Notes under the pieces: model-generated
Seen by the model: the letters and a program-made list of their open reading frames with translations, nothing else
The model's database searches: none
Told to the model about the DNA's origin: nothing
In this document: positions 4,066-17,153 of the stretch, piece by piece
Numbering within the stretch: position 1 is the first letter of the stretch
Layout of the letters: every line of letters starts with the position of its first letter
Made by a program: the position numbers and the translations under genes
Assembly (NCBI GenBank): GCA_031370645.1
Contig: JANMQV010000112.1
Coordinates: 1-45,129, forward strand
Origin: Candidatus Eiseniibacteriota bacterium
GTDB taxonomy: Bacteria; Eisenbacteria; RBG-16-71-46; SZUA-252
Direction: 5' to 3'
DNA: 45,129 nt

Positions 4066-4719
4066 TCACAATCTGGGCCGTGCGCCACCGACCGCTCGAA
4101 TTCCAAGCACGATCTCCTCAACGGTCGCTCCGCTCCCGTAGCCCCATGGAATGAGTCCCTCGGGATTCACCACGAAGACCTGCGTCGTATGCGCCTTCCC
4201 CTTCGCGATGCCCCACGCCAGCGCGATCTCTCCGATCTCTGCTTCCGTTCCCGAGACACCGAGAAACGACGGATCGAACCGGCGTGCGTACACCGCGGCG
4301 ACGGCCGGCGTGTCGTGTTCGGGGTCGACGCTCACGAAGACGAACCGCACGCGGGAGGTGTCGGCCCCAAGCTCCGCGCGGACTTTCGCCCAACGCTTCA
4401 GGACGATCGTGCAGACGTCGGGACAGTTGGTGAATCCAAAATAGACGAGCACGACCCGGCCGCGCTCGGTCGCCAGATCGAATGCGGCGCCGGCGTCGCC
4501 CGAGAGCCGGAGTGCCGGGGCAGGCTTGGGAGGATCGTAGAGAGCCCCGGGGAGCGATTCGAGGATGCGCCTCGATACGTCCCGTGGAGTCTCCCCGGCG
4601 CCGCCACACCCGCCTACCGGGCCAAGTAGCAGCGCCGCCATGAGCGCGCCAAAAACAAAAACCGCGCCGCTCGCCGAAGTCCGGCGTGCCGACGCGGTCA
4701 TCCGCGGATCCCGCTTCAT
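4066..4719 (-). CDS. SCO1/SenC family copper-binding protein (probable lipoprotein)
   Basis: 'YFGFTNCPDVC' CxxxC motif, 'FVSVDPEHDT', downstream His ('AHTTQVFVVNPEG'); lipobox-like 'VGGC'. Confidence 0.88.
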   Translation of the reverse strand: MKRDPRMTASARRTSASGAVFVFGALMAALLLGPVGGCGGAGETPRDVSRRILESLPGALYDPPKPAPALRLSGDAGAAFDLATERGRVVLVYFGFTNCPDVCTIVLKRWAKVRAELGADTSRVRFVFVSVDPEHDTPAVAAVYARRFDPSFLGVSGTEAEIGEIALAWGIAKGKAHTTQVFVVNPEGLIPWGYGSGATVEEIVLGIRAVGGARPRL

Positions 4720-4729
4720 GGCTGCGCCC

Positions 4730-5482
4730 CTACCCGAGCGTGTATCCCCCGTCCACGATGATCGTCTGGCCGGTCACCCAGGAAGCCTGTGGCGTGCAGA
4801 GGAAGGCGGCCATGTTGGCCACTTCTTCCGTGGTGCCGACGCGGCCGAAGGGCGTGCGGCGGATCGACTCCGCGATGAGCAGTTCGTAGGAGGGGAATAT
4901 CTTGAGCGAGTCGGTGTCGATGAATCCGCCCGAAACGGCGTTCACGTTGATCTTCTTCGAGGCGAGTTCATAGGCCAGGTAGCGGACGAGCGTCTCGATC
5001 GCGGCTTTCGAAACGCCGATCGCCGCGTAACCCGGAATGTAGCGATGCGAGCCGAGCGAGGTGAGCGCCACGATGCGTCCGCCTTCGGGCATCATCTTCA
5101 CGGCCTGCTGCGCGCCGAAGAGAAGCGCTTTCGCGTTCGTGTTCATGGCGATGTCCCACATCTTGTCGTCCACGTCGAGAATGTTCCCGAAGTGACCGAT
5201 GGCGGCGTTCGACACGAAGATATCGAGTTTCGAGAAGTGCTGGCGAAGCTCCTCGAACATCTTGGGGATCTGTTCTTCGTTCCCGACGTTGGCGCGAATG
5301 GCGTATCCGCGAACCCCCAGCGCTTCGATTTCGGCCACCGCCTGCTTGGCGGAGTCGCGGCTGCGGAAGAAGTTAATGGCAACGTCGGCACCCATCTCCG
5401 CGAGATCGAGGGCGATTGCCTTCCCGATGCCGCGGGTTCCGCCGGTCACGAGCGCCGTCTTGCCTCTGAGATCGAAGAGCAT
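4730..5482 (-). CDS. SDR oxidoreductase, FabL-like enoyl-ACP reductase
   Basis: TGGTRGIG, 'FVSNAA', '[12 protein letters not shown]' (Y-x6-K as in FabL), 'GQTIIVDGG'. Confidence 0.85.
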
Positions 5483-5513
5483 GGTCCCTCCCTGACGATG
5501 CTAAGAAGGGGGA

Positions 5514-5542
5514 ATGGTGCGGGGGCGAGGCGAACCTGTCAA
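5514..5542 (-). promoter_or_regulatory. Putative sigma70 promoter for the fabL-like/SCO genes
   Basis: Minus strand TTGACA (5542-5537), N17, CACCAT (5519-5514). The -10 is weak. Confidence 0.35.
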
Positions 5543-5586
5543 GGCCGGGACCGGGGCCGCGCGGGGCCGCGCGTAAGGCGAGGCGG

Positions 5587-6156
5587 CTAGATGGCGGGGC
5601 GAACCTCTCGCGCCACGAGCGTGAGTCCCCCCTTGCCACGCCATCCATCCACGACCGCGACCAGACGAACCCTGCGCCCATCGGCGGGGCGCTCGAGGGG
5701 GGCTGAAACAGCCACCGGAAACTCCTGCCCGGTTTCGGCGAGCGTAAACCGAAGCGTCCCATCGGCGCCCTTCGCGAACGATCCGCTCGCTTCGAAAAGA
5801 ACGTCGACGAGGCTGAGATCGTGGAGGCGGTTTTCGGCCAGCGTCTTGATCACGTCCCGAAGGGGGAGGACGCGCGGCTTCGCGTAGCTGACCTCCACTT
5901 GGTCGCCGTTCAGACGCGCGTCGCCTCCCTTGGCGCTCCCCTTCGCCATCTGCCGAATGGTGGTCCGGCAGTGTGCGCAGGACGTGCAGCCGCGGAGCGC
6001 GAGATAGACCTTCGCGAACGGCGTGGGAGCGGCCGCGATCGTCGATTTCCCGGAGGCGGAAGCGGCCCCCGCGGCGCGGGCCGGGGTGCCGGCGAGAAGA
6101 ACGCCTGCGGCGATCACGAACGTAGCGGCGATGGATGAAGTCTTGGCGCGAGTCAT
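5587..6156 (-). CDS. Secreted protein with an HMA-like metal-binding motif
   Basis: Signal peptide ending 'PARA'; 'LRGCTSCAHCRTTI' resembles the GMxCxxC motif of HMA/CopZ domains. Confidence 0.6.
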   Translation of the reverse strand: MTRAKTSSIAATFVIAAGVLLAGTPARAAGAASASGKSTIAAAPTPFAKVYLALRGCTSCAHCRTTIRQMAKGSAKGGDARLNGDQVEVSYAKPRVLPLRDVIKTLAENRLHDLSLVDVLFEASGSFAKGADGTLRFTLAETGQEFPVAVSAPLERPADGRRVRLVAVVDGWRGKGGLTLVAREVRPAI

Positions 6157-6176
6157 GGTCGGGGCTCCTTTGCCTT

Positions 6177-7313
6177 TTAGAATTGAAACGCGACGCCCAC
6201 GTTCAGGCGATTGAGTTCTTGGTCCACGCCGTCCTTCCAGTGCTCGAGGTCCGCCTTGAAAGCGACCTCACGCACGGGGTGGTAGGCGATGCCGCCGGTC
6301 ACGATGGTCCTTTCCGCGAGGGGATCCTTCGTCACGCCGATCTCCGTATCGGCGTTGGTGTCGAAGCGTTCGAAGCGGGCAAAGAGCCAGAGCGCGCGAT
6401 CGGGCATCTGCGTCTTTCCATGGAGCAGATCGAACGCCGCTTCGCCGTAGAGTCCCCAGATGCGGCTTGCCACGGGCTCTCCGACGACCGCGGAAACCGA
6501 ATCGGAATTACCGATGGAGACAGTCGCGACTTCACCACGCAGGTCGAGCGCACCGCGGCGGAAGCGGGCATCCCCTTCGGCAATCGAAACGCCGACGCTT
6601 CCGAGTCCCGGCGTCCCCTGGTCGGCGCCTCCGACGTAGCCCGAGCCGCCGATCGAGAGCCCTCCCTTCGCGGCGTATTCGAGACGGCCGACGAGCGCGA
6701 GATCTTCCGCCTTCGCCTCGACGCCGTGCTGGCGCCCTTCGCGAATGCCGCTTCCCGTGGAGAACCCGGTCGCATCGAGTCCCGACACGACGTACGCGCG
6801 GTATCCCAGGGCTCCGTTCGACGCGCGCCCCACGAGGCCGACTCCGATCTCCTGCCACGTCGTCGGAATCACCGATGCCTCGAGGTAGGGTCGCTCCACG
6901 CTGTGATAGGTCGGTGGTTCGTGGAATTCGTTCAGCGGGCCGACCGGCATGAGGAGACTCCCCGCGCGAAGACTCACGGTGGGGGCGAGGTCGTACTCGA
7001 TGTGCGCGTATTCGAGTTCGATCTCGCTGGCCGAATGTTCGTAATCGACTTCGGCGCTCATCCGAATCGAGGACGTGAACTCGTACTCCCAGCCGAGGAC
7101 GAGTCGATGCACATCGACCATGGCGGGAGCCTTCTTGTCCATCGTGCCGGTCTCGGGATTGTTGTAATGGATCTCGCCGTAGCCGTGGATCGAGTAGCGC
7201 CTCTCCGTGGCGGGGTCGCCTTCAGCGCGGGCCGTCGCCGCGGCGACGAGGCTCAGGGCCAGTGCTGCAGTGATCGTGACGGCGCGAATCGGCAGGGGGG
7301 AGACGAGTCTCAT
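6177..7313 (-). CDS. Outer-membrane beta-barrel porin (OprO/OprP-like family)
   Basis: Signal peptide (ARA cleavage); 'GYGEIHYN', 'EVDYEH', 'PVGPLNEFHEPPTYHSVERP', 'IPTTWQEIG'; terminal Phe (VAFQF). ATG at 7313. Confidence 0.75.
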   Translation of the reverse strand: MRLVSPLPIRAVTITAALALSLVAAATARAEGDPATERRYSIHGYGEIHYNNPETGTMDKKAPAMVDVHRLVLGWEYEFTSSIRMSAEVDYEHSASEIELEYAHIEYDLAPTVSLRAGSLLMPVGPLNEFHEPPTYHSVERPYLEASVIPTTWQEIGVGLVGRASNGALGYRAYVVSGLDATGFSTGSGIREGRQHGVEAKAEDLALVGRLEYAAKGGLSIGGSGYVGGADQGTPGLGSVGVSIAEGDARFRRGALDLRGEVATVSIGNSDSVSAVVGEPVASRIWGLYGEAAFDLLHGKTQMPDRALWLFARFERFDTNADTEIGVTKDPLAERTIVTGGIAYHPVREVAFKADLEHWKDGVDQELNRLNVGVAFQF

Positions 7314-7611
7314 CGAGTTCCTCCGGGCAAAGGGCGCCGACGCTTGCGTCGCGCTCGATCGATTTCGAATGGGCGTTCGAGACCGCGATCCCAAACGCGG
7401 TGTGAAGAATGCCGCCTAATGTGCGGCAGTACAAGCAAAAGTTAACCTGCCTTCACTACTTCCTTGGTAGACTGCGAATATCTACCCAAGTATCTATTCC
7501 GAAACATTTTGGGCCAGTAGCGGTGGGGTGATCGGCGCGAGGCCGGCAGAACTGCCCGGCCTCGGCCAGGCAGCCCTTGCGCCTTTCCCGGCGGCGTGAT
7601 ACTCCTCCGGC

Positions 7612-8544
7612 GTGAGTTTCGGACGACTCTTGATCGGGGCGATCCTCGTTGGGATTGGCGGGGTCCTACTCGCTTCTCAGTTGGGGTATCTGCCTGCGGG
7701 CGTGATGCCCTGGTTCCTGCAATTCTGGCCCGCCCTCCTCGTCCTGTTCGGCCTCGCCCTCCTCGCAAACGCCATGAAGAACGTCGTACTCGGCTGGTTC
7801 GTGGCGGTCCTCGCCATCGCGGCCATCGCGTTCGGCGGTTGGTGGCTGGCCCACAACAAGGCGGCGGCGGGAACGGCTCATGTGGCGCGGCATTCGCTCA
7901 ACCGGCCGGTCGTCGAGACGCTCACGCTTCACGCTCGGACGTTCGGCGGAAGGCTCTCCATCGCGGGGGGCATGCGCGATTCCGCCTCGGGCGACGGCGC
8001 CCACTCGCTCGAAGTCTCCATCCGCGGCGTTAGCGACAAGGACGCCGAGCACACCTGGAGCGTCGGCGGCAGGACGGCCGAGTTCACCTGGCCGACACAC
8101 GTGCTCATCCCCGGCACCGCTCCCTTCGGCGCGGAGGTAGAGCTGCGCGCGCCGAAGCGAACGCTGGTCCGCCTGAAGACAGAGACGATTCTTTCGGGCG
8201 CCGATATCGACCTTACGAACCTCCGCCCGGAGAGTTGCGACACCCGCGTCGTGTCGGGCGGCGTTCGCGTGCGGGTCGGTGACGCGGCCCCCTCGATGAT
8301 TCGAATTCACGGCGCGCTCGGCGCTGCCGAGCTGATTCTTCCCGCCGCCGGTCCGGTGCGCGTTGAGTTTCTTTCGCCCCTCACGGCCCGATCGCTTCCC
8401 GACGATTTCCTCGAACACGTGGGTGGGCGCGGCAAGGCGAAGATCTGGATCGCCGAAGGGAAGGGGCGGCCGCTCCTCGTCGTTGTGGACGGAATGTTCC
8501 TCTACGTGAAGATCAAGCGCGCGCCCGTGCGCGCCGGAGGCTGA
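7612..8544 (+). CDS. LiaF/LiaI-like (DUF5668-type) membrane protein with a C-terminal beta-rich domain
   Basis: 'GAILVGIGGVLLASQLGYL...FWPALLVLFGL' N-terminal TM hairpin typical of LiaI/LiaF-like domains. Confidence 0.65.
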   Translation: MSFGRLLIGAILVGIGGVLLASQLGYLPAGVMPWFLQFWPALLVLFGLALLANAMKNVVLGWFVAVLAIAAIAFGGWWLAHNKAAAGTAHVARHSLNRPVVETLTLHARTFGGRLSIAGGMRDSASGDGAHSLEVSIRGVSDKDAEHTWSVGGRTAEFTWPTHVLIPGTAPFGAEVELRAPKRTLVRLKTETILSGADIDLTNLRPESCDTRVVSGGVRVRVGDAAPSMIRIHGALGAAELILPAAGPVRVEFLSPLTARSLPDDFLEHVGGRGKAKIWIAEGKGRPLLVVVDGMFLYVKIKRAPVRAGG

Positions 8545-8546
8545 CG

Positions 8547-8720
8547 ATGGCTGGAGGCGGCGGTCACAGCAGCATCGCATTCCCCCTCACGCTCGTGGCG
8601 GTCGGGGCTCTCCTTCTCCTGAAGGAGTTCGGCTACCTCCACGAGAATATTCTCCGCTACTGGCCGGTCCTTCTGATCGTCTGGGGTCTCGGCATGATTT
8701 GGGCGTCCCGAAAGGGGTAA
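8547..8720 (+). CDS. Small (57 aa) LiaI/DUF5668-like membrane protein, absent from the ORF track
   Basis: Manual translation MAGGGGHSSIAFPLTLVAVGALLLLKEFGYLHENILRYWPVLLIVWGLGMIWASRKG*; GGAGG RBS just upstream; WP motif shared with the upstream gene. Confidence 0.75.
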   Translation: MAGGGGHSSIAFPLTLVAVGALLLLKEFGYLHENILRYWPVLLIVWGLGMIWASRKG

Positions 8721-8778
8721 ATGCCCCGGAAGCGACTAGAGTGGCGGAACCTCGCGACCCCTGGTAGAGTTTGAAGGG

Positions 8779-9057
8779 ATGATGAACCTAGGAATGCGTC
8801 GCCACCTTCGGATTACCGCCCTCCTTGCCCTCCTTCTCGTCGGGATTTGGGTCGGCATCGTGCTGGTCCACGAGCATACGGGCGTCCAGCGATGCGAGGT
8901 ATGTAACGCGCTCCAATTCACGTCGGCCGACCTGGTCGCCCCGATCGTGGTGGCCGAGCCCGAAGCCGTAACACTCCTCGCCGAACCGCCGGCGCTCCCC
9001 TCCGCCGCAACGCCGTACCTCTCGACTCCTCCGGGCCGCGCCCCGCCGCTCGCCTAG
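8779..9057 (+). CDS. DUF2946-like leader peptide (TM, HEH, CxxC, RAPP); putative metal-responsive arrest peptide
   Basis: Hydrophobic N-terminus, 'VHEH', 'CEVC', Pro/Ala linker, C-terminal 'GRAPPLA*'; lies directly upstream of a metal-uptake operon. Confidence 0.8.
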   Translation: MMNLGMRRHLRITALLALLLVGIWVGIVLVHEHTGVQRCEVCNALQFTSADLVAPIVVAEPEAVTLLAEPPALPSAATPYLSTPPGRAPPLA

Positions 9058-9107
9058 CCTCCCCCGAACCGTTCCGTAACTCGCTTTACCCCTGAAATTC
9101 GGAGGCT
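9056..9107 (+). promoter_or_regulatory. SD-sequestering hairpin downstream of the RAPP leader
   Basis: AGCCTCC (9056-9062) is the exact reverse complement of GGAGGCT (9101-9107), which contains the SD of GTG 9111. GAA 9066-9068 can also pair with TTC 9098-9100. Confidence 0.6.
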
Positions 9108-9110
9108 GTC

Positions 9111-9242
9111 GTGCGCGTTTCATTCCGCGCGGCGACCGCGTTCCTTGCGCTTGTTGTCATGAGCGCCGGATTCGCGGCGGTCGCGTCCGCTCAATCGACT
9201 TCAACATCCAGCGCCCGTCAAGGAGGAGGCTTCACGCGATGA
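9111..9242 (+). pseudogene. 5' remnant (signal peptide) of the native outer-membrane gene, 43 aa
   Basis: GGAGG RBS plus GTG; MRVSFRAATAFLALVVMSAGFAAVASA|QSTSTSSARQGGGFTR*. The TGA overlaps ATG 9239. Confidence 0.6.
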
Positions 9243-10594
9243 GATGGACATTGGGGATAGCGACACTCGCCGCCGCTGCGATGCTGTGCAGTTCCCGAGT
9301 AGAGGCGCAGCAGACCTCCGATACGACCGCCCGTCGAAACGAGGGCATGCTTGACTCGCTCACTTCCTCCGTCCGTGTTCTTCGGGCGCGAGTTGATAGC
9401 TTGGCCGGCGCCGGCGAAGAGTCCGCAGCTGCGTCGCGGACCGCCGAAAAGCCGTCCTCGCCGGCCCCGGCGGCGCGGGCAGGGGGTTCGTACATGAACA
9501 TCAGCTACGATGGACTTATGGACTTTGGCTGGTCCTCTGAGGCAGATGTCGGCTAGCTGCAGCGGGGCGATCACGATCCCCAGGTACGAGGCTTCACAAT
9601 CCCCAATGGAGAACTCTCGCTGGATGGAACTGTGGATCCGCACTTCAAGGGCTTCAGCAACATCGTCCTTAAGCTGAATTCCGAGGGCGAGACGGGTATC
9701 GAATTGGAGGAGCTGTATTTCCTGACTACCTCGCTGCCGTGGAACTTGCAGCTGAAGGGCGGTCAATTTTTCACCGAGTTTGGTCGCCAGAATCCCCAGC
9801 ACCCGCACGCATGGTCCTTTGTGGACCAGCCGTTGGTGCTCAATAGCATGTTCGGCCCCGATGGGTTGCGTAGCCAAGGTGCGAGGGTCTCATGGCTCGC
9901 GCCGACATCGTGGTACACGGAAGCCATGGTCAGTGTTTTCAATAGCGCTGGGGGGACGGCGTTCAGCTTCCGCTCGCCCGAGTCATCAGAAATTCATGGA
10001 GGTGCACCCGTCGAGCGTGGGGTGCGCACATTCCGTGACATGCTGGTCGTGCCGCGCATCGCCACGTCATTCGACCTGAACACGACTCAGACGCTCGTGT
10101 TGGGCACGTCGGCTGCCTTCGGACCCAATAGCTCCGGGGCCCGTGCCAAGACCCAGGTGTATGGGGCCGACCTCTACTGGAAGTGGAAATCCACCACGGC
10201 AGATAGGGGCTTCCCGTTCTTTTCCTCCCAGACCGAGGTGCTGTTCCGCCGCTATGGAGCGGCAACGCGCGTTTCCGTAGCAGACTCGACGGCCACTCTG
10301 TTCGACGAGACGCTCAGTGACCGGGGCGTTTATTCGCAGTTGTTGTGGGGGATCAAGCCGCTCTGGGTCGCGGGGCTCCGCGGCGACTACGTCCGCGGGG
10401 GGCCCGCGGGGTTCGACTCACCTTTGCGCGCCGATCGCTACCGGCTCTCGCCGAATGTGACGTGCTACCTAAGCGAATTCTCGAAGTTGCGCCTGCAGTA
10501 CAACTACGACCACCGCAAGGGACTCGGCGCCGATCACTCGGTGTGGCTCCAGTTCGAGTTCCTCCTGGGCGCGCACGCAGCACACAAATTCTAA
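9239..10594 (+). pseudogene. Metal-uptake outer-membrane beta-barrel protein interrupted by a single in-frame TAG (9554-9556)
   Basis: ORFs 9239-9556 and 9632-10594 are in the same frame. The read-through sequence 'DVG*LQRGDHDPQVRGFTIPNGELSLDGTVDPHF' is continuous. Also 'FGRQNPQHPHAWSFVDQP' and C-terminal 'GAHAAHKF'. Confidence 0.75.
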
Positions 10595-10610
10595 AGGAGT
10601 AGAAGCACCT

Positions 10611-11537
10611 ATGAAAACCATGCGTCAGTTTACAATCGCGGCCGCCGCGCTAATCGCGCTGAGCGGCACAGGAGCGGCATCCGCACGACCACTCAACGTG
10701 GTGGCCACCACGCCGGATCTGGCAGCGCTTGCGAGGGAAATCGGCGGAGATGCCGTCGTCGTGGCGGCGCTGGCCAAACCGACGGAAGACCCGCATTTCG
10801 TGGACGCCAAGCCGAGCCACATCGTTACGCTCCACCGCGCCGATGTGCTCATCGAAGGTGGCGCCGAACTAGAAATCGGCTGGTTGCCGCCCCTGCTTGA
10901 GAGCGCACGCAACGCCAAAATTGCCCCAGGCGCGCCGGGACGCATCGTCACTTCGCAGGGCATCAGGATGCTCGAGGTACCCTCAACCCTCGACCGTTCC
11001 AGAGGCGATGTGCACGCGCTGGGTAATCCCCATTTTCTGATCGACCCGCTTAATGTGAAGGTCATCGTGGGGGAAATTGCCGAACACTTCGCGGAAGTCG
11101 ATCCAGCATCGGCCGGGCTGTTCAAGGCAAACCTGAAGAGATTTGACGCGAGCCTCGATGCAAAGACGGCCGAGTGGCAAAAGCAGCTCGAACCGTATCG
11201 AGGGGCGAAGATCGTCACTTACCATAATGACTTTGTCTACTTGGCTGAGCGGTTCAACCTGGAGGTAGTCGCGACCTTGGAGCCGAAGCCAGGCATCTCG
11301 CCCTCGCCCGCGCATCTGGCGAAGGTCATTGAACAAATGAAGGCTGAAAAAGCGCGCGTGATTCTCGTACAGCCTTACCAGAATCGCAAAACGGCGGAAG
11401 CGGTGGCGCGCCAGACGGGTGCGGTGGTGGTAGATAGTGCTCAGCAGCCGGGAGCTTACAAGGATACTGCCACGTATTTTCAGATGATGGATCATCTGGT
11501 GCAGGGGCTGGCCAAGGCCTTGAAGGAGAAGACATGA
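10611..11537 (+). CDS. Zn/Mn ABC transporter substrate-binding protein (ZnuA/TroA family)
   Basis: Signal peptide; metal-ligand motifs 'EDPHF', 'GNPHF', 'TYHN'; 'EPKPGISPSPAHL'. Confidence 0.92.
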   Translation: MKTMRQFTIAAAALIALSGTGAASARPLNVVATTPDLAALAREIGGDAVVVAALAKPTEDPHFVDAKPSHIVTLHRADVLIEGGAELEIGWLPPLLESARNAKIAPGAPGRIVTSQGIRMLEVPSTLDRSRGDVHALGNPHFLIDPLNVKVIVGEIAEHFAEVDPASAGLFKANLKRFDASLDAKTAEWQKQLEPYRGAKIVTYHNDFVYLAERFNLEVVATLEPKPGISPSPAHLAKVIEQMKAEKARVILVQPYQNRKTAEAVARQTGAVVVDSAQQPGAYKDTATYFQMMDHLVQGLAKALKEKT

Positions 11538-12370
11538 TGCAGGGGGAATTCCAGATCGCTTGGGAAGTCATGAAATGGCCGTTGGCGGCCTGCCTTGTGC
11601 TGCCACCGCTGCTGGTCTATCTCGGACTTCACGTTGTAGAGCGCGAAGTGATCTTCGTCGACCTGGCACTGGCCCAAGTGGCGACGCTGGGCACCTGCGT
11701 TGCCCTGATCATGGGCTACAGTTTTAAGGATCCCATCGCGTTTTGGATTTCGCTCGGTGTAACGTTTCTCGCCGCGGCCCTGTTCAGTTGGTCGCGCAGC
11801 AGCGAAAAACGTCATGTCCCGCAGGAAGCCATCATTGGCATCACGTTCGTGGTAGCTGCAGCGGGTGTGATCCTGCTGCTCAGCAGAGTGGCGGGAGGGA
11901 AAGAGGAACTCGAGAACTTACTGACGGGGGATGTTCTCAACGTGACCAAGGCGGAGGTCGGTCAGCGCGCGGCGATCTTTGCGGTGTTGGCCGGCTTCTA
12001 CGGCGCGTTTCACAAGCGATTCGCACTGATTTCGTCCGACCCGGACGGGGCTCGTGCGCAAGGGTTGAAGGTGCGTCTTTGGGACTTTCTGTTTTACGCG
12101 GCGTTTGCATTGGTAGTCGTCAGCTTTGTGCGTCTGGCAGGAGTACTGCTGACGTTTGCGTATCTGATCGTGCCTGCCGTCTGCGCGGTAATGCTCGCCC
12201 CACGATGGAGGACACGGTTGGTAATCGGGTGGGTGATCGCCGCGGCAGCGAGCCTGCTCGGGCTGTGGGCATCGTACCGGCTGGACTTGCCTACCGGGGC
12301 GGCGATTGTGTGCGCTTGCGGGTTACTTTTGGTCGTGGTGAGCGGTTACGCCGTTGTGCGCCGAGCATAG
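11534..12370 (+). CDS. Zn/Mn ABC transporter permease (ZnuB/ABC-3 family)
   Basis: 'IFVDLALAQVA', 'EAIIGI', 'GVLLTFAYLIVPA', 'DLPTGAAIV'; ATGA overlap with the SBP gene. Confidence 0.92.
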   Translation: MMQGEFQIAWEVMKWPLAACLVLPPLLVYLGLHVVEREVIFVDLALAQVATLGTCVALIMGYSFKDPIAFWISLGVTFLAAALFSWSRSSEKRHVPQEAIIGITFVVAAAGVILLLSRVAGGKEELENLLTGDVLNVTKAEVGQRAAIFAVLAGFYGAFHKRFALISSDPDGARAQGLKVRLWDFLFYAAFALVVVSFVRLAGVLLTFAYLIVPAVCAVMLAPRWRTRLVIGWVIAAAASLLGLWASYRLDLPTGAAIVCACGLLLVVVSGYAVVRRA

Positions 12371-12489
12371 GGAACGCTCGAAGCTCAAGGCGGCCATTCA
12401 GTGATCGCGGAGACCTCCCCCGACTCGAGAGAGGTCGAAGTCCTGCGCGGCGCGCGCTTGGTCGGGATGCATATCACCCCTCCTGCTTT

Positions 12490-12703
12490 GACTCGTCGCG
12501 TACGGCTCGCGGTCGGATGGATCGTCGGCGCGGCGGTCAGCATCGCTGGGACGCTCGTGTCGTACAAACTCGACTTCCCCACGGGGGCGACGATGGCCGC
12601 GACACTTGTCTTGGCCCTCTTTCCCTCGGTCGGTGCGGCGGCGTCCGTGGCGCCAGCGGCCCCGCGGCGCTCCCCTTCCCGTCACGACCCCCACGCCGCC
12701 TGA
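12490..12703 (+). pseudogene. 3' remnant of a second (native) ZnuB-type permease
   Basis: 'RVRLAVGWIVGAAVSIAGTLVSYKLDFPTGATMAATLVL' aligns by eye with the intact permease C-terminus 'RTRLVIGWVIAAAASLLGLWASYRLDLPTGAAIVCACGL'; the N-terminal ~230 aa are missing. Left boundary is approximate. Confidence 0.75.
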
Positions 12704-12805: not shown

Positions 12806-13246
12806 ATGCTGAAGTTCATCACCAAGACCAACAACGACTTGAGTCTTCTATTCGTCCGTCTCGTCGTGGCCGCCGTCATGTTCCCGCACGGCGCTCAGAA
12901 GGTTCTCGGCTGGTTCGGCGGGTACGGCTATCTCGGGACCTACACCTATCTGACGAAGCAGATCGGGGCCCCGGCTCCTTTCGCGATTCTGGCGATCGCG
13001 ACCGAATTTCTGGGTCCGGTTGCCTTGGCGCTCGGTCTCTTCGGACGCGCCGCGGCGGCGGGTATCGTCAGCATCATGGCGGTTGCGGTGGCGACCGTTC
13101 ACTTCAAGAACGGCTTCTTCATGAACTGGTCGGGCGCTCAGGCGGGCGAGGGTTTCGAGTATCACATCCTCATGGCCGCGCTCGCGCTCCTCATCGTATT
13201 CAAGGGGAGCGGCGCCTACTCGGTCGACCGGAAGATCTCGGCCTGA
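12806..13246 (+). CDS. DoxX family membrane protein
   Basis: 'MFPHGAQKVLGWFGG', 'GFFMNWSGAQAGEGFEYH', 'GSGAYSVD'. Confidence 0.92.
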   Translation: MLKFITKTNNDLSLLFVRLVVAAVMFPHGAQKVLGWFGGYGYLGTYTYLTKQIGAPAPFAILAIATEFLGPVALALGLFGRAAAAGIVSIMAVAVATVHFKNGFFMNWSGAQAGEGFEYHILMAALALLIVFKGSGAYSVDRKISA

Positions 13247-13274
13247 CGCGAACGCAACGGAAGGGACGGCCACG

Positions 13275-13736
13275 ATGAGCACTCACTATCGAGGGGGCGC
13301 CGCGGAACGGCGCGCCCTCGATGTTTATACGCGGCTCATGCGAAGCGGGAAATCGGTCGGGACGCGGCTTGCTCGACAACTCCGCGAGCAGGGGCTCACT
13401 GAGACCCAATTCGGCTGCCTGGAGATGCTCTTCCATCTGGGACCGCTTCACCCCCAGGAGATCACGGAGAAGCATTTCATGACCGGCGGCAACACGACCT
13501 TCGTCGTAACGACGCTCGAGAAGGAGGGTCTCGTGGAGCGGAAGCCCGATCCAAACGACGGCCGCGCGACGCTCGTGCGGCTCACGGCGAAGGGGCGGAG
13601 GCTCGTGGCGGAACTCCTCCCCGGCCACGTCGCCGCCATCGTGCGGGAATTCGCGATCCTCTCGGCCGCGGAGCAGGAGGAACTCGGAAGGCTGTGCCGG
13701 ATCGTGGGAACGAGGGAGCGGCCCCCGGCTAGGTAG
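13275..13736 (+). CDS. MarR family transcriptional regulator
   Basis: 'GLTETQFGCLEML', wing motif 'LEKEGLVERKPDPNDGRATLVRLTAKG'. Confidence 0.92.
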   Translation: MSTHYRGGAAERRALDVYTRLMRSGKSVGTRLARQLREQGLTETQFGCLEMLFHLGPLHPQEITEKHFMTGGNTTFVVTTLEKEGLVERKPDPNDGRATLVRLTAKGRRLVAELLPGHVAAIVREFAILSAAEQEELGRLCRIVGTRERPPAR

Positions 13737-13943
13737 CCCAACCGCGGTCCCATGGCGTGGCCCGGTAGCCAGGCCGCGGCCCCTCCAAATCCTGGCGAAA
13801 CTCCGCGCTCCGGTTCAGCGTAGAATGAAAAAAGGGGTTGCCGCTCCGGGGTTGACGAGACCCCCCGGATCCCTCGACGCCACGGCGTCTGGGTGAAGAT
13901 CCCCCCTTCCGCGGCGCCCCGAACCTTTTTCCGGAGGTCCCCC

Positions 13944-14348
13944 GTGGCACGTGGAAGAACCACCGTCATCGTCGTCGCCTTCGCTGCCTTCTGCCTCGCG
14001 CTCGGCTACTGGTGGAGCATTCAGATCGGACTTCCGCTGACCGGCCAGAAACCATGGTGGTACGGGAAGGATGCGCACGTCCGTATCCAGGTCATCGAGG
14101 AGGGGCACGACATGGCGACCGTCTCGATGCGTCTCCCGAAGGGGATCATGGACACGATGGTGGCGCTCGGGACGGACGCGAAGATCTCGATGGACAAGGA
14201 CCATACGGTCGTCGGATTCACCACGCAGAAGGCGGCACGCGAGATCAAACTGCGCGATATCTGGAAGGACATCCAAAAACTTCCGAAGGGTCAGAAGCTG
14301 ACCGTCCAGGAAGACGGCGCTACGCTCAACATCTGGATCGAAGCCTAG
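13944..14348 (+). CDS. Hypothetical membrane-anchored protein
   Basis: GGAGG RBS at 13933, GTG at 13944, N-terminal TM segment, host-like codon usage. Confidence 0.65.
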   Translation: MARGRTTVIVVAFAAFCLALGYWWSIQIGLPLTGQKPWWYGKDAHVRIQVIEEGHDMATVSMRLPKGIMDTMVALGTDAKISMDKDHTVVGFTTQKAAREIKLRDIWKDIQKLPKGQKLTVQEDGATLNIWIEA

Positions 14349-14382: not shown

Positions 14383-15468
14383 CTACGGCAGAAACCGCTC
14401 CGGGTGCGCGATCTTCTGGGGCAGATACTCGTCGATCACGTAATTCAAGCCATGCGCCGCCAGCGCCTGCTGCTCGGCGCGGACTCCCATCGAGATGAGA
14501 TGCTCCATCGCCTTCGCCCACGGCTTGTGGTGCTTGAAGAAGGGGTCGTTCTTGATGGCATCCTTGGCCCGCTTCACGTCGACGTCCTTCAAGGGGTGCG
14601 TCGGTAGCTTGTAGTCGATGATGTCTTGCGGCGTGATGCCGAGGAAGCGCGCCTGCGGCACGCAGAAGAACTCGTTGATGTGCGCCGCGTTCCCCGAACC
14701 CACCTTGAACGTGCGGTAGATGTTCGAAATCCCGTACGGGTCGCCGTCCACGAAGACGTAGACCGGGATCTTCTTCTCGTCGGCCAGCCGCCGGATGAAG
14801 CGCCGACAGGCGCGCGTCGGGACGCCTCCCATGGACACCAGGATGCAGTTCGCCTTCTTCCAGTAGCCGTGCTTCACCAGGCGCTGAAACATGCCGGCGG
14901 TCTCGATCACCAAAATGAACTTCGCTTTCGTCTCGAATTTCAGATGCTCGACCGAGATCGGAATGGAATAGGCGCCACTTCCGAATTGGGTACAGTCGAT
15001 CCGGATCGGCTTCCCCGTGTCGTTGTCCTTGTCGACAACGACCAGCGCGCCGGAGATGTCGCCCCCCTTCTCCTCGGGGACGAATCCCATCTGCTCGCGA
15101 TTCACCTCAAACAATGCCTCCACGTCGTCCATGACGGTGTCGGACTCGGTCTGCTCCAGGAAGCGCGCATCGCCCCAATTCTTCGAGACGTAGTACGCCT
15201 CTCGCTTCGTCGCGATGTCGTCGGTCTCGACCAGCGTCTTCGAGAGCGCCATCATCCGGAGCGTCTGGGCGAACGTTTTTACGGTGTTCACGGTGAGCGT
15301 CCGCTCCTTCATCAGGCCGCGGATCTCGAAGTAGCCATCTTTCTCCACGTACTTCACGTTCGCGAGCGAACGAACGGGAAACTTCATCATCGGCTTCTTC
15401 TTCTTGAGGATCTGATCCTCGACGTTCTTTGCTTCCTTCTTGATCTTCGGTACCAGGTTCTCGCTCAT
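14383..15468 (-). CDS. top6A: DNA topoisomerase VI subunit A (Spo11-like)
   Basis: '[10 protein letters not shown]' catalytic-Tyr region; TOPRIM acidic residues 'VIETAG' and 'DGDPYG'; 'AEQQAL'. Confidence 0.93.
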
Positions 15469-17153
15469 GTGCGGCTCCGTTCGAGAGTGTCCTTGAGCGT
15501 CGAGCAGACTTTGTCGCGTTCCTTGTCCCCGATTCCGAGGATCTCCTGGAGTGCGATGCCGATGTGGGGGATGTACTTCTCGATATACGAGCGCTTCTTC
15601 TCCTCGTCCGCCTCTCGAAGTCCGCGGCGGATGAAGATGCCCAATTTACGTCCCACGTCCTGAAGCGCGAGCCGGATCTCCTTCATGATTTCGGGATAGG
15701 AGGCCACGGCTTCCTTCGACTCCGACGTGAACGGCACCCAGACGGATGCGATGTGGACCATCAGAAGCATCGGCGCGGTCGGGAGCGCCCCGCGCGACTG
15801 CTGCAATCCGTACGACTTCCAATTCGTCTGCGTCACCGACTTCGACACCGCGCAGGCCGACTGCTGATAGAGGAGCGGCACGCGGTTCGCGAAGCGGAGC
15901 ATGGTGATCAGCTCATCCCCTGGAAGCGCCTCCCCGCCATAGGCGAGCGCCGCCTCCACGCAGAAGGGATTCCCGCGATAGACGGCGGGCGAGCGTGACG
16001 TCGCCGCATAAAACTTCGCATCCACCTGCTTCTTCAACCCGGCCAGCAACAACTCCTCCCCGATCGGCGAGAGAACGTTGGCGGGCGGCGCCATCAGTTT
16101 CGTCGCCTGGATCGCCTTGTAGAGCGCTTCCGCCTGGTCGCGCGCCGCCTTGTGCGGCGAATAGCTCGGGGGGAGCATGGCCGTCTGGGCGATTTCATCG
16201 GCCGAGGCGGCACTCACGCGGGAGAACTCGCTGGTGAGGAACCCCTGGAGGTTCTTCGCCTTCGTTTCGTGGAGCATCTTCAGGAGAATGCCGAGCTCCA
16301 CGCCGTGCGGGTGGGGCTTGATCTCCTTCGGCGCCACCGGCAGTTCCTTCGCCACGCGCGGGTATTCGACGCGCTCCCCCTTCGGATCGACGTAGACGAT
16401 CTGCGCATGGGGATTCGCCATGGCGGTCTGTTCCACGTAGCCGTCGACCGAGTGGCGCCCCTTCTTATAGGTCGCCTCGATTTCCAGCTCCACGCGCGTT
16501 CCATGCGACGGAATCCACTCCACCTCGTGATCGGCGACAACGACCGGCGTGTTCCGGCGCGTATCGATTTGAATTTCGAATCGGTGAGCCGGCTTCCCGG
16601 CCCCGACCTTCGAGATGACGTTGATGGCGCGGCCGGTGGTGAGCTGTCCGTACATCGCGGCCGCCGAAATGCCGATCCCCTGCTGCCCTCGCGACTGGCG
16701 GAGCCGGTGGAACTTCGAGCCGTAGAGAAGCTGCCCGAAGATGCGCGGCACCTGCGCTTTCACGATGCCGGGACCGTTGTCCTGGACGGCAACGCGGTAG
16801 CGCGTCTCGTTGATCTCCTGAATCTCGAGAATCAGATCCGGAAGGATGCCCGCCTCTTCGCAGGCGTCGAGCGCGTTGTCGACCGCTTCTTTGACGGTGG
16901 TGAGGAGGGCTTTCGCGGGACTGTCGAATCCGAGGAGGTGGCGGTTCTTGGTGAAGAACTCGCTTACCGAGATTTCGCGCTGCTTCTCGGCCATGTCGGC
17001 GGCGGTGAGGCGCACCACCTTCGGCGCTGCCTTGGGCGCTGCTTTCAGCGCTTCCTTGGGCGTTGCTTTCAGCGCCTTCGCCGGCGCTTTCGCCTTGGCG
17101 GGGGCGGCTCGCTTGCCGCCGGTGTTCGTCTTCTTCGCGGTGGCTCCGCTCAT
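15465..17153 (-). CDS. top6B: DNA topoisomerase VI subunit B (GHKL ATPase)
   Basis: '[16 protein letters not shown]', N-box '[10 protein letters not shown]', 'DNGPGI', 'QSRGQQGIG', transducer 'RFANRVPL', '[10 protein letters not shown]'. Confidence 0.95.
17030..17075. repeat. 24-bp period tandem repeat encoding the Lys/Ala/Pro-rich N-terminal tail of Top6B
   Basis: ccttgggcgctgctttcagcgc (17030-17051) and ccttgggcgttgctttcagcgc (17054-17075). Confidence 0.75.

Follow-up and report, generated by a model that had tools for sequence, protein, structure and literature searches.

Upstream open reading frames (uORFs) of the DUF2946 family combine a CXXC motif with a RAPP motif. The two motifs are separated by 45 residues, a distance conserved to within 1-2 residues, RAPP lies three residues from the C-terminal end, and more than 95% of the members have an export signal (PMC9426467). 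In the family member CruR of Bordetella pertussis, mutation of RAPP or CXXC abolishes regulation (PMC9426467), and arrest of the ribosome has been demonstrated in vitro (PMC12992588). A survey of uORFs with RAPP or RGPP reported that they are enriched before genes for TonB-dependent receptors, YcnI, PCuAC, PepSY and DsbA/thioredoxin proteins, and that the annotation 'carbohydrate porin' is enriched downstream (54 for RAPP vs. 5 for AAPP) (PMC12992588). Metal sensing by an arrest peptide has so far been shown only for copper, by CruR and by CutF of Rhodobacter capsulatus. Here we describe a leader peptide of similar design in a 45,129-nucleotide stretch of DNA from a Candidatus Eiseniibacteriota bacterium (contig JANMQV010000112.1, referred to here as the window), where it is the first gene of an operon for a porin-type outer-membrane protein, a ZnuA-family substrate-binding protein and a ZnuB-type permease. 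Based on the analysis below, we suggest that the leader probably belongs with the CruR/CutF (DUF2946-like) peptides, as a nascent chain that senses metal, stalls the ribosome translating it and thereby switches the operon.

We found that the leader open reading frame (ORF) has the layout of an exported arrest peptide. A 92-aa ORF with a transmembrane segment, HEH, CEVC, a linker of ~44 residues and RAPP before the stop had been described in an earlier note made from the sequence alone, and all of these elements are present (Table 1). The mean Kyte-Doolittle value of the 19 residues of the hydrophobic segment is 2.86, and the hydrophobic block is kept in both alignments of homologs described below (A1 and A2). 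The predicted topology of the anchor is N-in/C-out. GC content at codon positions 1, 2 and 3 of the ORF is 0.74, 0.48 and 0.78, respectively, and the frame therefore looks coding.

The RAPP motif by itself is weak evidence for an arrest peptide. In a six-frame translation of this 3 Mb GC-rich genome, RAPP or RGPP was found within 8 aa of a stop 267 times, so the case rests on conservation. The combination of RAPP or RGPP with CxxC at a distance of 40-48 residues was found in one open frame of ordinary composition in the whole genome.

We found that conservation of the leader is confined to the anchor, the ligand block and GRAPP. A word-indexed protein search with the leader gave 39 candidates, 27 of them homologs at E≤0.01; those that are named are 'hypothetical protein' from Candidatus Eisenbacteria. 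In the alignment of the 27 close homologs (A1), H31, H33, C39, C42, G86, R87, A88, P89 and P90 are invariant and the linker is variable. Dependence on RAPP being conserved among orthologs had been built into the earlier note, and RAPP is indeed present in every one of these homologs. A profile made from them and compared with 1.84 billion representative proteins matched only 37 at E≤0.001. The alignment of the wider set (A2) shows no variation at H31, C39 or C42 and at least 90% conservation at H33, R87, P89 and P90; a second homolog search, done with A2, gave 49 proteins, and no precomputed Pfam domain was attached to any of them.

The pattern of CxxC, spacer, RxPP and short tail occurs in 81 of 82 family proteins, the exception being a 61-aa fragment. 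Among the 81, the spacer between CxxC and RxPP is 44 aa in 74 proteins, 45 aa in five, 43 aa in one and 39 aa in one. The motif reads RAPP in 75 of them. It always lies 1-11 residues from the stop, and the tail that follows it is 2 aa long in 60. HxH is found within the 12 aa before CxxC in 79. A linker that is free in sequence and constant in length is what we would expect of a molecular ruler, and we therefore read it as such and not as a folded domain.

The leader appears to be a distant relative of the DUF2946 proteins. Pfam and NCBIfam searches of the leader ORF alone gave nothing useful, and the DUF2946 profile (PF11162) found no match above its cut-off over the whole genome. At E≤1, PF11162 matched 21 of 38 members of the leader family. 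At E≤0.05 it matched 12 of 35 relatives, in which residues ~30-89 align to profile positions 53-117 with the stretch from CxxC to RAPP in register. In the ESM Atlas, the nearest clusters (91-95 aa; score 0.96) are named DUF2946 or have PF11162 on 54% of their members. The architectural features of DUF2946 proteins are all found in the leader: CXXC, RAPP near the stop, a spacing of ~45 residues, an N-terminal anchor, and a position as first gene of a metal operon. The resemblance to CruR and DUF2946 that the earlier note had pointed out is thus confirmed, down to a ruler of 44 aa (45 in CruR) and a RAPP motif 2-3 aa from the end. Because the leader has the whole architecture and the profile does not recognize it, we conclude that by its sequence the leader has diverged from its DUF2946/CruR/CutF relatives and is not a member of the Pfam family. 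Missed by Pfam and annotated as 'hypothetical', the leader family is for these reasons invisible to standard annotation.

We found that the leader is linked to the same genes wherever it was followed. With a profile of the leader family, 20 of 206 genomes of the phylum gave a match, all within one taxonomic family. The matches in that family were 7/7 in genus g1, 7/10 in g2, 5/10 in g4 and 0/13 in g3; there were none in the other 17 families (0/165). Sixteen of the 19 Eisenbacteria loci outside the window's own genome were fetched, the other three being on contigs too short to use. In 16/16 of these the leader is followed by a gene for a porin-like protein and then by ZnuA. ZnuB follows ZnuA in 15, and the sixteenth ends at a contig edge. 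One genome of genus g3 (G184) contains a different RAPP ORF, undetected by the family profile used in the survey, between a LiaF-like pair and a porin-ZnuA-ZnuB cassette. A search with a further alignment (A3) found no relative in genome contigs and five loci in metagenome contigs. The leaders of this distant subfamily are ~30% identical to that of the window. As far as the contigs reach, a porin gene follows the leader in all five, ZnuA is present in four and ZnuB in three. The claim of the earlier note that the leader heads a porin/ZnuA/ZnuB operon was thereby borne out at the 16 Eisenbacteria loci, in G184 and at the five metagenome loci, and the linkage of the uORF to znuA/znuB across genomes, which it had proposed to survey, was seen wherever relatives were fetched.

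The outer-membrane protein encoded after the leader is most consistent with a porin. It had no Pfam or NCBIfam match, including none to Plug or TonB_dep_Rec. TonB-dependent transporters have a Plug domain and a 22-strand barrel and are longer than 600 aa, whereas this protein has 451 aa (379 aa in relatives). An AlphaFold model has a pLDDT (predicted local distance difference test) of 68 overall and 70-90 in the barrel. The best matches of the model in the PDB are porins of 16-18 strands (chitoporin, OmpT, OprP, DcaP and AlgE), and there was no TonB-dependent receptor among the matches listed. The protein thus models as a plug-less porin-type barrel, in agreement with the non-TonB porin proposed earlier. 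The native porin type gave a weak, sub-threshold match to the LbtU siderophore porin family.

The two genes that follow point to zinc. The nearest solved structures to the ZnuA-family protein are Synechocystis ZnuA and zinc binders of the AztC type; its match to the NCBIfam AztC model is below the cut-off. In six homologs covering all three subfamily contexts, His62, His141 and His205 do not vary; they align with the histidines of the DPH, DPH and FH motifs of Synechocystis ZnuA. We take these three histidines to be the zinc ligands of a three-histidine site, as in ZnuA-type binders. The permease gene is the only ABC-3 gene in the genome (95% complete), and none of the loci seen has an ABC ATPase gene beside ZnuA/ZnuB, with no search for ZnuC made elsewhere. 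Judged by family and ligands, the cargo of the operon is a zinc-type importer.

Two features of the neighborhood accompany these operons. Directly upstream of the leader are genes for a LiaF-TM-domain protein of 310 aa (7612-8544, + strand) and a LiaI/LiaF-like membrane peptide of 57 aa (8547-8720, + strand). As far as the contigs reach, this pair is in the same place in G184 and in all 16 Eisenbacteria loci. The ABC-3 permease of the distant subfamily has a C-terminal HEAT-repeat domain (L040 3705-5015, L043 2861-4285).

We found that the window is a natural chimera, in which the porin-ZnuA-ZnuB cassette has been replaced by one from another lineage. DNA collinearity with four loci of the same genus (L023-L026) ends at 9202. 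It resumes at 12503-12619 and at ~13814 in L023-L025; past the break, L026 has only a short match, at 11617-11692. Positions 9350-12370 share 86% DNA identity with the cassette of G184, which belongs to another genus and has its own, different RAPP leader. The proteins of the window and G184 are 89% (ZnuA) and 96% (ZnuB) identical, and the flanking LiaF-like gene only 31%. What is left of the original operon is the promoter, the leader, the first ~31 codons of the porin and the end of ZnuB. The porin remnant, a 43-codon ORF, is 73% identical over 33 aa to the N-terminus of the porin of a same-genus locus, and its stop overlaps the next ATG (ATGA, 9239-9242). The junction of the chimera is spanned by contigs from three DNA runs of two studies.

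The gene of the swapped-in porin contains an in-frame TAG (9554-9556). Two studies provide three public DNA runs whose contigs have C at position 9555, giving TCG (Ser), and homologs have Ser at this codon, as does the database protein P0064. We therefore regard the TAG as a variant or error of this assembly that does not characterize the population. Recoding and a pseudogene had both been considered as its meaning, and recoding was rejected on the same observations.

Table 1. Coordinates of the features of the leader, its operon and its control elements (positions in the window unless another locus is named)
Feature	Position	Strand	Remarks
Leader ORF, 92 aa	8779-9057	+	Conserved Met is the second ATG, 8782
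Transmembrane/signal-anchor segment, residues 12-30	8812-8868	+	R7, R8 and R11 are N-terminal of the segment
H31-E-H33, candidate metal ligands	8869-8877	+	In leader ORF
C39-E-V-C42, candidate metal ligands	8893-8904	+	Five residues after HxH
Linker, 44 residues (8 Pro, 9 Ala)	8905-9036	+	Sequence varies, length fixed
RAPP arrest motif, R87-A-P-P90 (CGC GCC CCG CCG)	9037-9048	+	Followed by Leu-Ala-TAG
Porin-type outer-membrane barrel ('porin-prime', swapped-in cassette)	9239-10594	+	In-frame TAG at 9554-9556
ZnuA-family substrate-binding protein	10611-11537	+	PF01297, 4e-60
ABC-3 (ZnuB-type) permease	11534-12370	+	PF00950, 4e-33; start overlaps ZnuA stop
43-codon ORF, remnant of original porin start (signal peptide)	9111-9242	+	GTG start
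Remnant of original ZnuB C-terminus	12401-12703	+	Weak ABC-3 match; 56-67% identity to ZnuB ends of relatives
Stop codon and pyrimidine-rich anti-Shine-Dalgarno arm, UAGCCUCC (predicted)	9055-9062	+	Minimum-energy folds, RNAalifold
3' arm, GGAGGCUG (predicted): Shine-Dalgarno GGAGG (9101-9105) and CUG	9101-9108	+	Serves GTG at 9111
Promoter-like element	8746-8771	+	GGAAC 8746-8750, 18-nt spacer, GTT 8769-8771
Extended -10-like string, TGGTAGAGT	8762-8770	+	Overlaps the GGAAC-N18-GTT element
RAPP leader of G184	L045 969-1280 (G184:C45)		HQHH, CALC, 44 residues, RAPP-LA-stop

The spacer between the leader and the GTG at 9111 may contain an RNA switch. Both the minimum-energy folds and an RNAalifold consensus built on 10 loci contain a helix between 9055-9062 and 9101-9108, which would mask the Shine-Dalgarno sequence. 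Pairing is seen in 88.8% of cells for this helix and in 74.5% for the full 11-pair structure, compared with 30-50% when the full structure is slid. The nine bases after the stop include seven to nine pyrimidines in 17/17 loci, and C exceeds G in the first 45 nt after the stop, also in 17/17 (19 C and 7 G in the window). The Shine-Dalgarno sequence is predicted to pair with the segment after the stop in 12 of the 15 loci evaluated. In the distant subfamily the predicted arms are different: GUCUCUCUCU, which starts 2-3 nt after the RAPP codons, would pair with an unusual Shine-Dalgarno sequence, GGAGAGAGAC. The energy rank of that duplex is ≤0.01 in four of the five loci. An anti-Shine-Dalgarno element is thus strongly supported in the distant subfamily but only moderately in the Eisenbacteria clade. 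In both designs the 5' arm is within ~12-19 nt of the P-site codon of the predicted stall, where an arrested ribosome should hold the helix open.

A promoter-like element precedes the leader. The GGAAC-N18-GTT spacing is identical in 16/16 Eisenbacteria loci, with the ATG 6-10 nt after GTT, and T-G-n-T-A-n-n-G-T is largely conserved in the same columns. GGAAC-N18-GTT equals the consensus for the extracytoplasmic function (ECF) sigma factors sigmaE/sigmaH of Corynebacterium and mycobacteria (PMC10012870). The element could be an ECF-type promoter, a reading that fits at least as well as a sigma-70 extended -10. Because neither reading leaves room for a Shine-Dalgarno sequence, the mRNA is predicted to be leaderless or nearly so. 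The earlier note had proposed an extended -10 and a nearly leaderless transcript; the second part, and the element itself, remain plausible, and for the first the ECF-type reading does at least equally well. When 8500-9400 was scanned with a simple sigma-70 consensus, 0 promoters were found. In the distant subfamily, a sigma-70-like motif, TTGCAT-N17/18-TATCAT/TATGAT, lies 9 nt before the ATG. A genome search for further sites of the motif gave a next best score of 17 vs. 34, and a stricter pattern gave 0 matches. With no second strong site in the genome, no regulon or sigma factor can be named. A terminator-like site on the minus strand (8534-8519) was judged unrelated to the operon.

There is a weak hint that the leader region is transcribed. 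In one metatranscriptome run (6/30 bins covered), a 136-nt fragment with adapters on both sides matched 8969-9104 with no mismatch. It spans the 3' end of the leader and the spacer up to the Shine-Dalgarno sequence.

What the sequences show is the layout of the leader, how it is conserved, its gene neighbors and the kind of cargo; from these we infer a stall, the metal that is sensed, the sign of control, the topology and the RNA switch in the following scheme. Transcription would start a few bases before the ATG, at GGAAC-N18-GTT/TGnTAnnGT, giving a near-leaderless mRNA. By inserting N-in/C-out, the anchor would bring HxH and CxxC to the outer side of the membrane. Translation would arrest at R87-A-P, with the P site occupied by the Pro89 codon (9043-9045) and the A site by the Pro90 codon (9046-9048), a position chosen from cryo-electron microscopy of ApdA and ApdP (PMC10951233) and the toeprint of CruR (PMC12992588). 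The ligand block would then be 47-58 residues from the peptidyl-transferase center, at a distance set by the 44-aa ruler. The stalled ribosome would cover the stop and the start of the anti-Shine-Dalgarno arm, leaving the Shine-Dalgarno sequence free. The ORF at 9111 would be translated, with porin, ZnuA and ZnuB following by coupling. Metal bound at a His2Cys2 site would fold or pull the chain and release the arrest. Zinc is the most likely metal, since the cargo is zinc-type and HxH is nearly invariant. After release, translation would terminate, the helix would close and the uptake genes would be off. In addition, the C-rich spacer may be a loading site for Rho. We put forward this complete version, a modular leader whose zinc-sensing His2Cys2 nascent chain, 44 residues from the arrest, releases a RAPP stall and so switches porin and ZnuA/ZnuB, only tentatively.

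Several observations weigh against parts of this interpretation. PF11162 gave no match to the leader ORF even at E≤10, and 0/35 relatives pass its cut-off (best, 23.3 bits; gathering score, 23.7 bits). The profile search for DUF2946 suggested in the earlier note was thus negative both for the ORF and, at the gathering score, for its relatives. At one locus (L034), D-H is in place of H-x-H. CruR is reported to work without its signal peptide (PMC9426467). In CutF, copper induces stalling and a detoxifying oxidase is turned on (bioRxiv 10.1101/2025.02.05.636593); here the opposite sign is expected, because the cargo is an uptake system. Since CruR uses Rho and a 162-nt spacer and metal enhances stalling in CutF, neither mechanism nor sign can simply be transferred to the window. 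Within the Eisenbacteria clade, the Shine-Dalgarno helix had no compensatory change and did not exceed shuffle controls, and fold z-scores are only about -0.8. The duplex energy rank relative to the same-locus background is 0.035 in the window and 0.006-0.82 in the clade, with 10/16 loci above 0.08. In L023 and L025 the Shine-Dalgarno sequence is predicted to pair elsewhere. The 136-nt transcript fragment might come from DNA carry-over.

Our results might also indicate that the leader stalls as proposed and that the output is transcriptional. The stalled ribosome would mask a Rho loading site, release would lead to termination before the porin gene, and the Shine-Dalgarno helix would be incidental. 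CruR works through Rho (PMC9426467), the 45 nt that follow the stop are rich in C and poor in G at every locus, and in the clade the helix lacks covariation and is unremarkable in energy at most loci. In contrast, the spacer here is 53 nt, compared with 162 nt in CruR, and the long, unusual, complementary arms of the distant subfamily point to masking of the Shine-Dalgarno sequence. We consider this a possible but rather doubtful account of the output; Rho termination and masking could also act together. Alternatively, the same device might respond to another ligand: copper, another thiophilic metal, or the thiol/disulfide state of CxxC in the periplasm. CruR and CutF are both described as responding to copper through Cys motifs, disulfide formation is part of the model for CutF (bioRxiv 10.1101/2025.02.05.636593), and a gene for a SCO1/SenC copper chaperone is nearby (4066-4719). 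That gene, however, is on the opposite strand and apart from the operon. A ligand other than zinc would also have to be reconciled with a cargo that combines an ABC-3 permease with a ZnuA-family binder whose three histidines are invariant and whose nearest structures are zinc-specific, and with HxH beside CxxC in nearly all family proteins, and we think it unlikely.

Two further explanations would do without metal-dependent arrest. A conserved coding gene with plausible ligands and a membrane anchor could specify a stable, small, membrane-anchored metal-binding protein of the periplasm, a chaperone or accessory of porin/ZnuA, with RAPP as a structural or interaction motif. Such a protein would not be expected to conserve only the anchor, the ligand block and GRAPP around a 44-aa linker that varies in sequence and not in length, nor to keep RAPP always so close to the stop. 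In addition, RAPP is described as a strong arrest sequence that proteomes avoid (PMC12992588), and the Atlas model is poor (pLDDT 0.63, predicted template modeling score 0.30). We regard a stable protein as improbable. Because ApdA and ApdP, like the leader, have an N-terminal anchor and a C-terminal RAPP, the leader might instead be a monitoring substrate for Sec or YidC, like SecM/ApdA, whose arrest is relieved only by the pull exerted as the chain inserts into the membrane, metal playing no part. This seems to us very improbable: the downstream genes are porin and ZnuA/ZnuB in every fetched locus and never sec or yidC, and the invariant His/Cys block would be left without an explanation. 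The leader is best accounted for as a nascent chain that senses metal and stalls the ribosome translating it.

Other genes of the window lie outside this operon. A DoxX-MarR pair (12806-13736, + strand) has no counterpart in three of the four loci compared from the same genus, and the fourth shows no match past 11692; in L030, from another genus, such a pair is present after ZnuB with ~50% identity. A conserved ORF of 151 aa with an N-terminal membrane segment and no family match (13893-14348, + strand) is also downstream of the operon in same-genus loci. On the minus strand, a divergent cluster (4066-7394) encodes a 405-aa porin-like protein without a family match, a 189-aa exported protein with CxxCxxC, a short-chain dehydrogenase and the SCO1/SenC protein. 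Genes for topoisomerase VI subunits A and B are at 14383-17153 (- strand) of this bacterial genome.

Zinc uptake by znuABC and ZnuD is, in the textbook case, controlled by the DNA-binding Zur repressor. The cargo of those systems is like that of the window, with a zinc-type binder, a permease and entry through the outer membrane; the difference is that control there is by a DNA-binding repressor. No Zur box was identified in the window, where no search aimed at one was made. A leader of CruR architecture before porin/ZnuA/ZnuB in at least three diverged subfamilies suggests that zinc import can also be controlled co-translationally, with the sensor at the membrane. If this is true, zinc uptake would for the first time be seen under translational (arrest-peptide) control. 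The chimera of leader and cassette shows that the regulatory module can move between cassettes. Both the fixed ruler of 44-45 residues and the position of the anti-Shine-Dalgarno arm lead to precise predictions, which mutation could test.

Devices of this kind are not new. The earlier note had called this the best candidate for an undescribed system in the window, but CruR, CutF and the RAPP uORFs of the published survey (PMC12992588) already describe devices of this kind. As for its linkage to zinc uptake, no account of a RAPP leader linked to Znu genes turned up in the literature searched, and none on ZnuA with a leader peptide or ribosome stalling among the matches listed. The words 'zinc' and 'ZnuA' are absent from the main text of the RAPP/RGPP survey, and the parts of its supplement that were searched contain no ZnuA/ZnuB linkage, Eisenbacteria row or RNA switch (PMC12992588). 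The one relevant paper found on DUF2946 and zinc concerns the Zur regulon of Caulobacter, in which a DUF2946 gene with a Zur box (CC2720) is located ahead of czrCBA (PMC4176598).

The leader is comparable to several described systems, to different degrees. SecM of Escherichia coli and ApdA/ApdP monitor Sec/YidC and precede sec or yidC genes, and as described they have no block of His/Cys ligands (PMC10951233). The uORFs of the RAPP/RGPP survey are closer, being small exported RAPP ORFs before metal-homeostasis genes (PMC12992588, EMBO J 2025). CutF resembles the leader in being a DUF2946-type nascent exported sensor for which sensing is proposed at the periplasmic face, and in the proposal that the Shine-Dalgarno sequence of the next gene, hidden in a stem-loop, is freed when a stalled ribosome melts this structure; its motifs are CxxxC and a PPP dependent on elongation factor P, compared with CxxC and RAPP in the window (bioRxiv 10.1101/2025.02.05.636593). 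CruR (Bp2923) also has an export segment, CxxC and a fixed spacer (45 residues, and 44 here), and like the leader is the first gene of a metal-uptake operon that opens with an outer-membrane protein (PMC9426467). CruR is 145 aa long and ends 3 aa after RAPP; for the window leader the values are 92 aa and 2 aa. Unlike CruR, the leader has an almost invariant HxH beside CxxC. CruR precedes a TonB-dependent copper transporter, with a 162-nt spacer and Rho-dependent termination, whereas the leader precedes a plug-less porin and a ZnuA/ZnuB zinc-type importer, with a 53-nt spacer and a predicted helix that would mask the Shine-Dalgarno sequence. CruR is found in Proteobacteria, and the window leader in Candidatus Eisenbacteria (PMC9426467).

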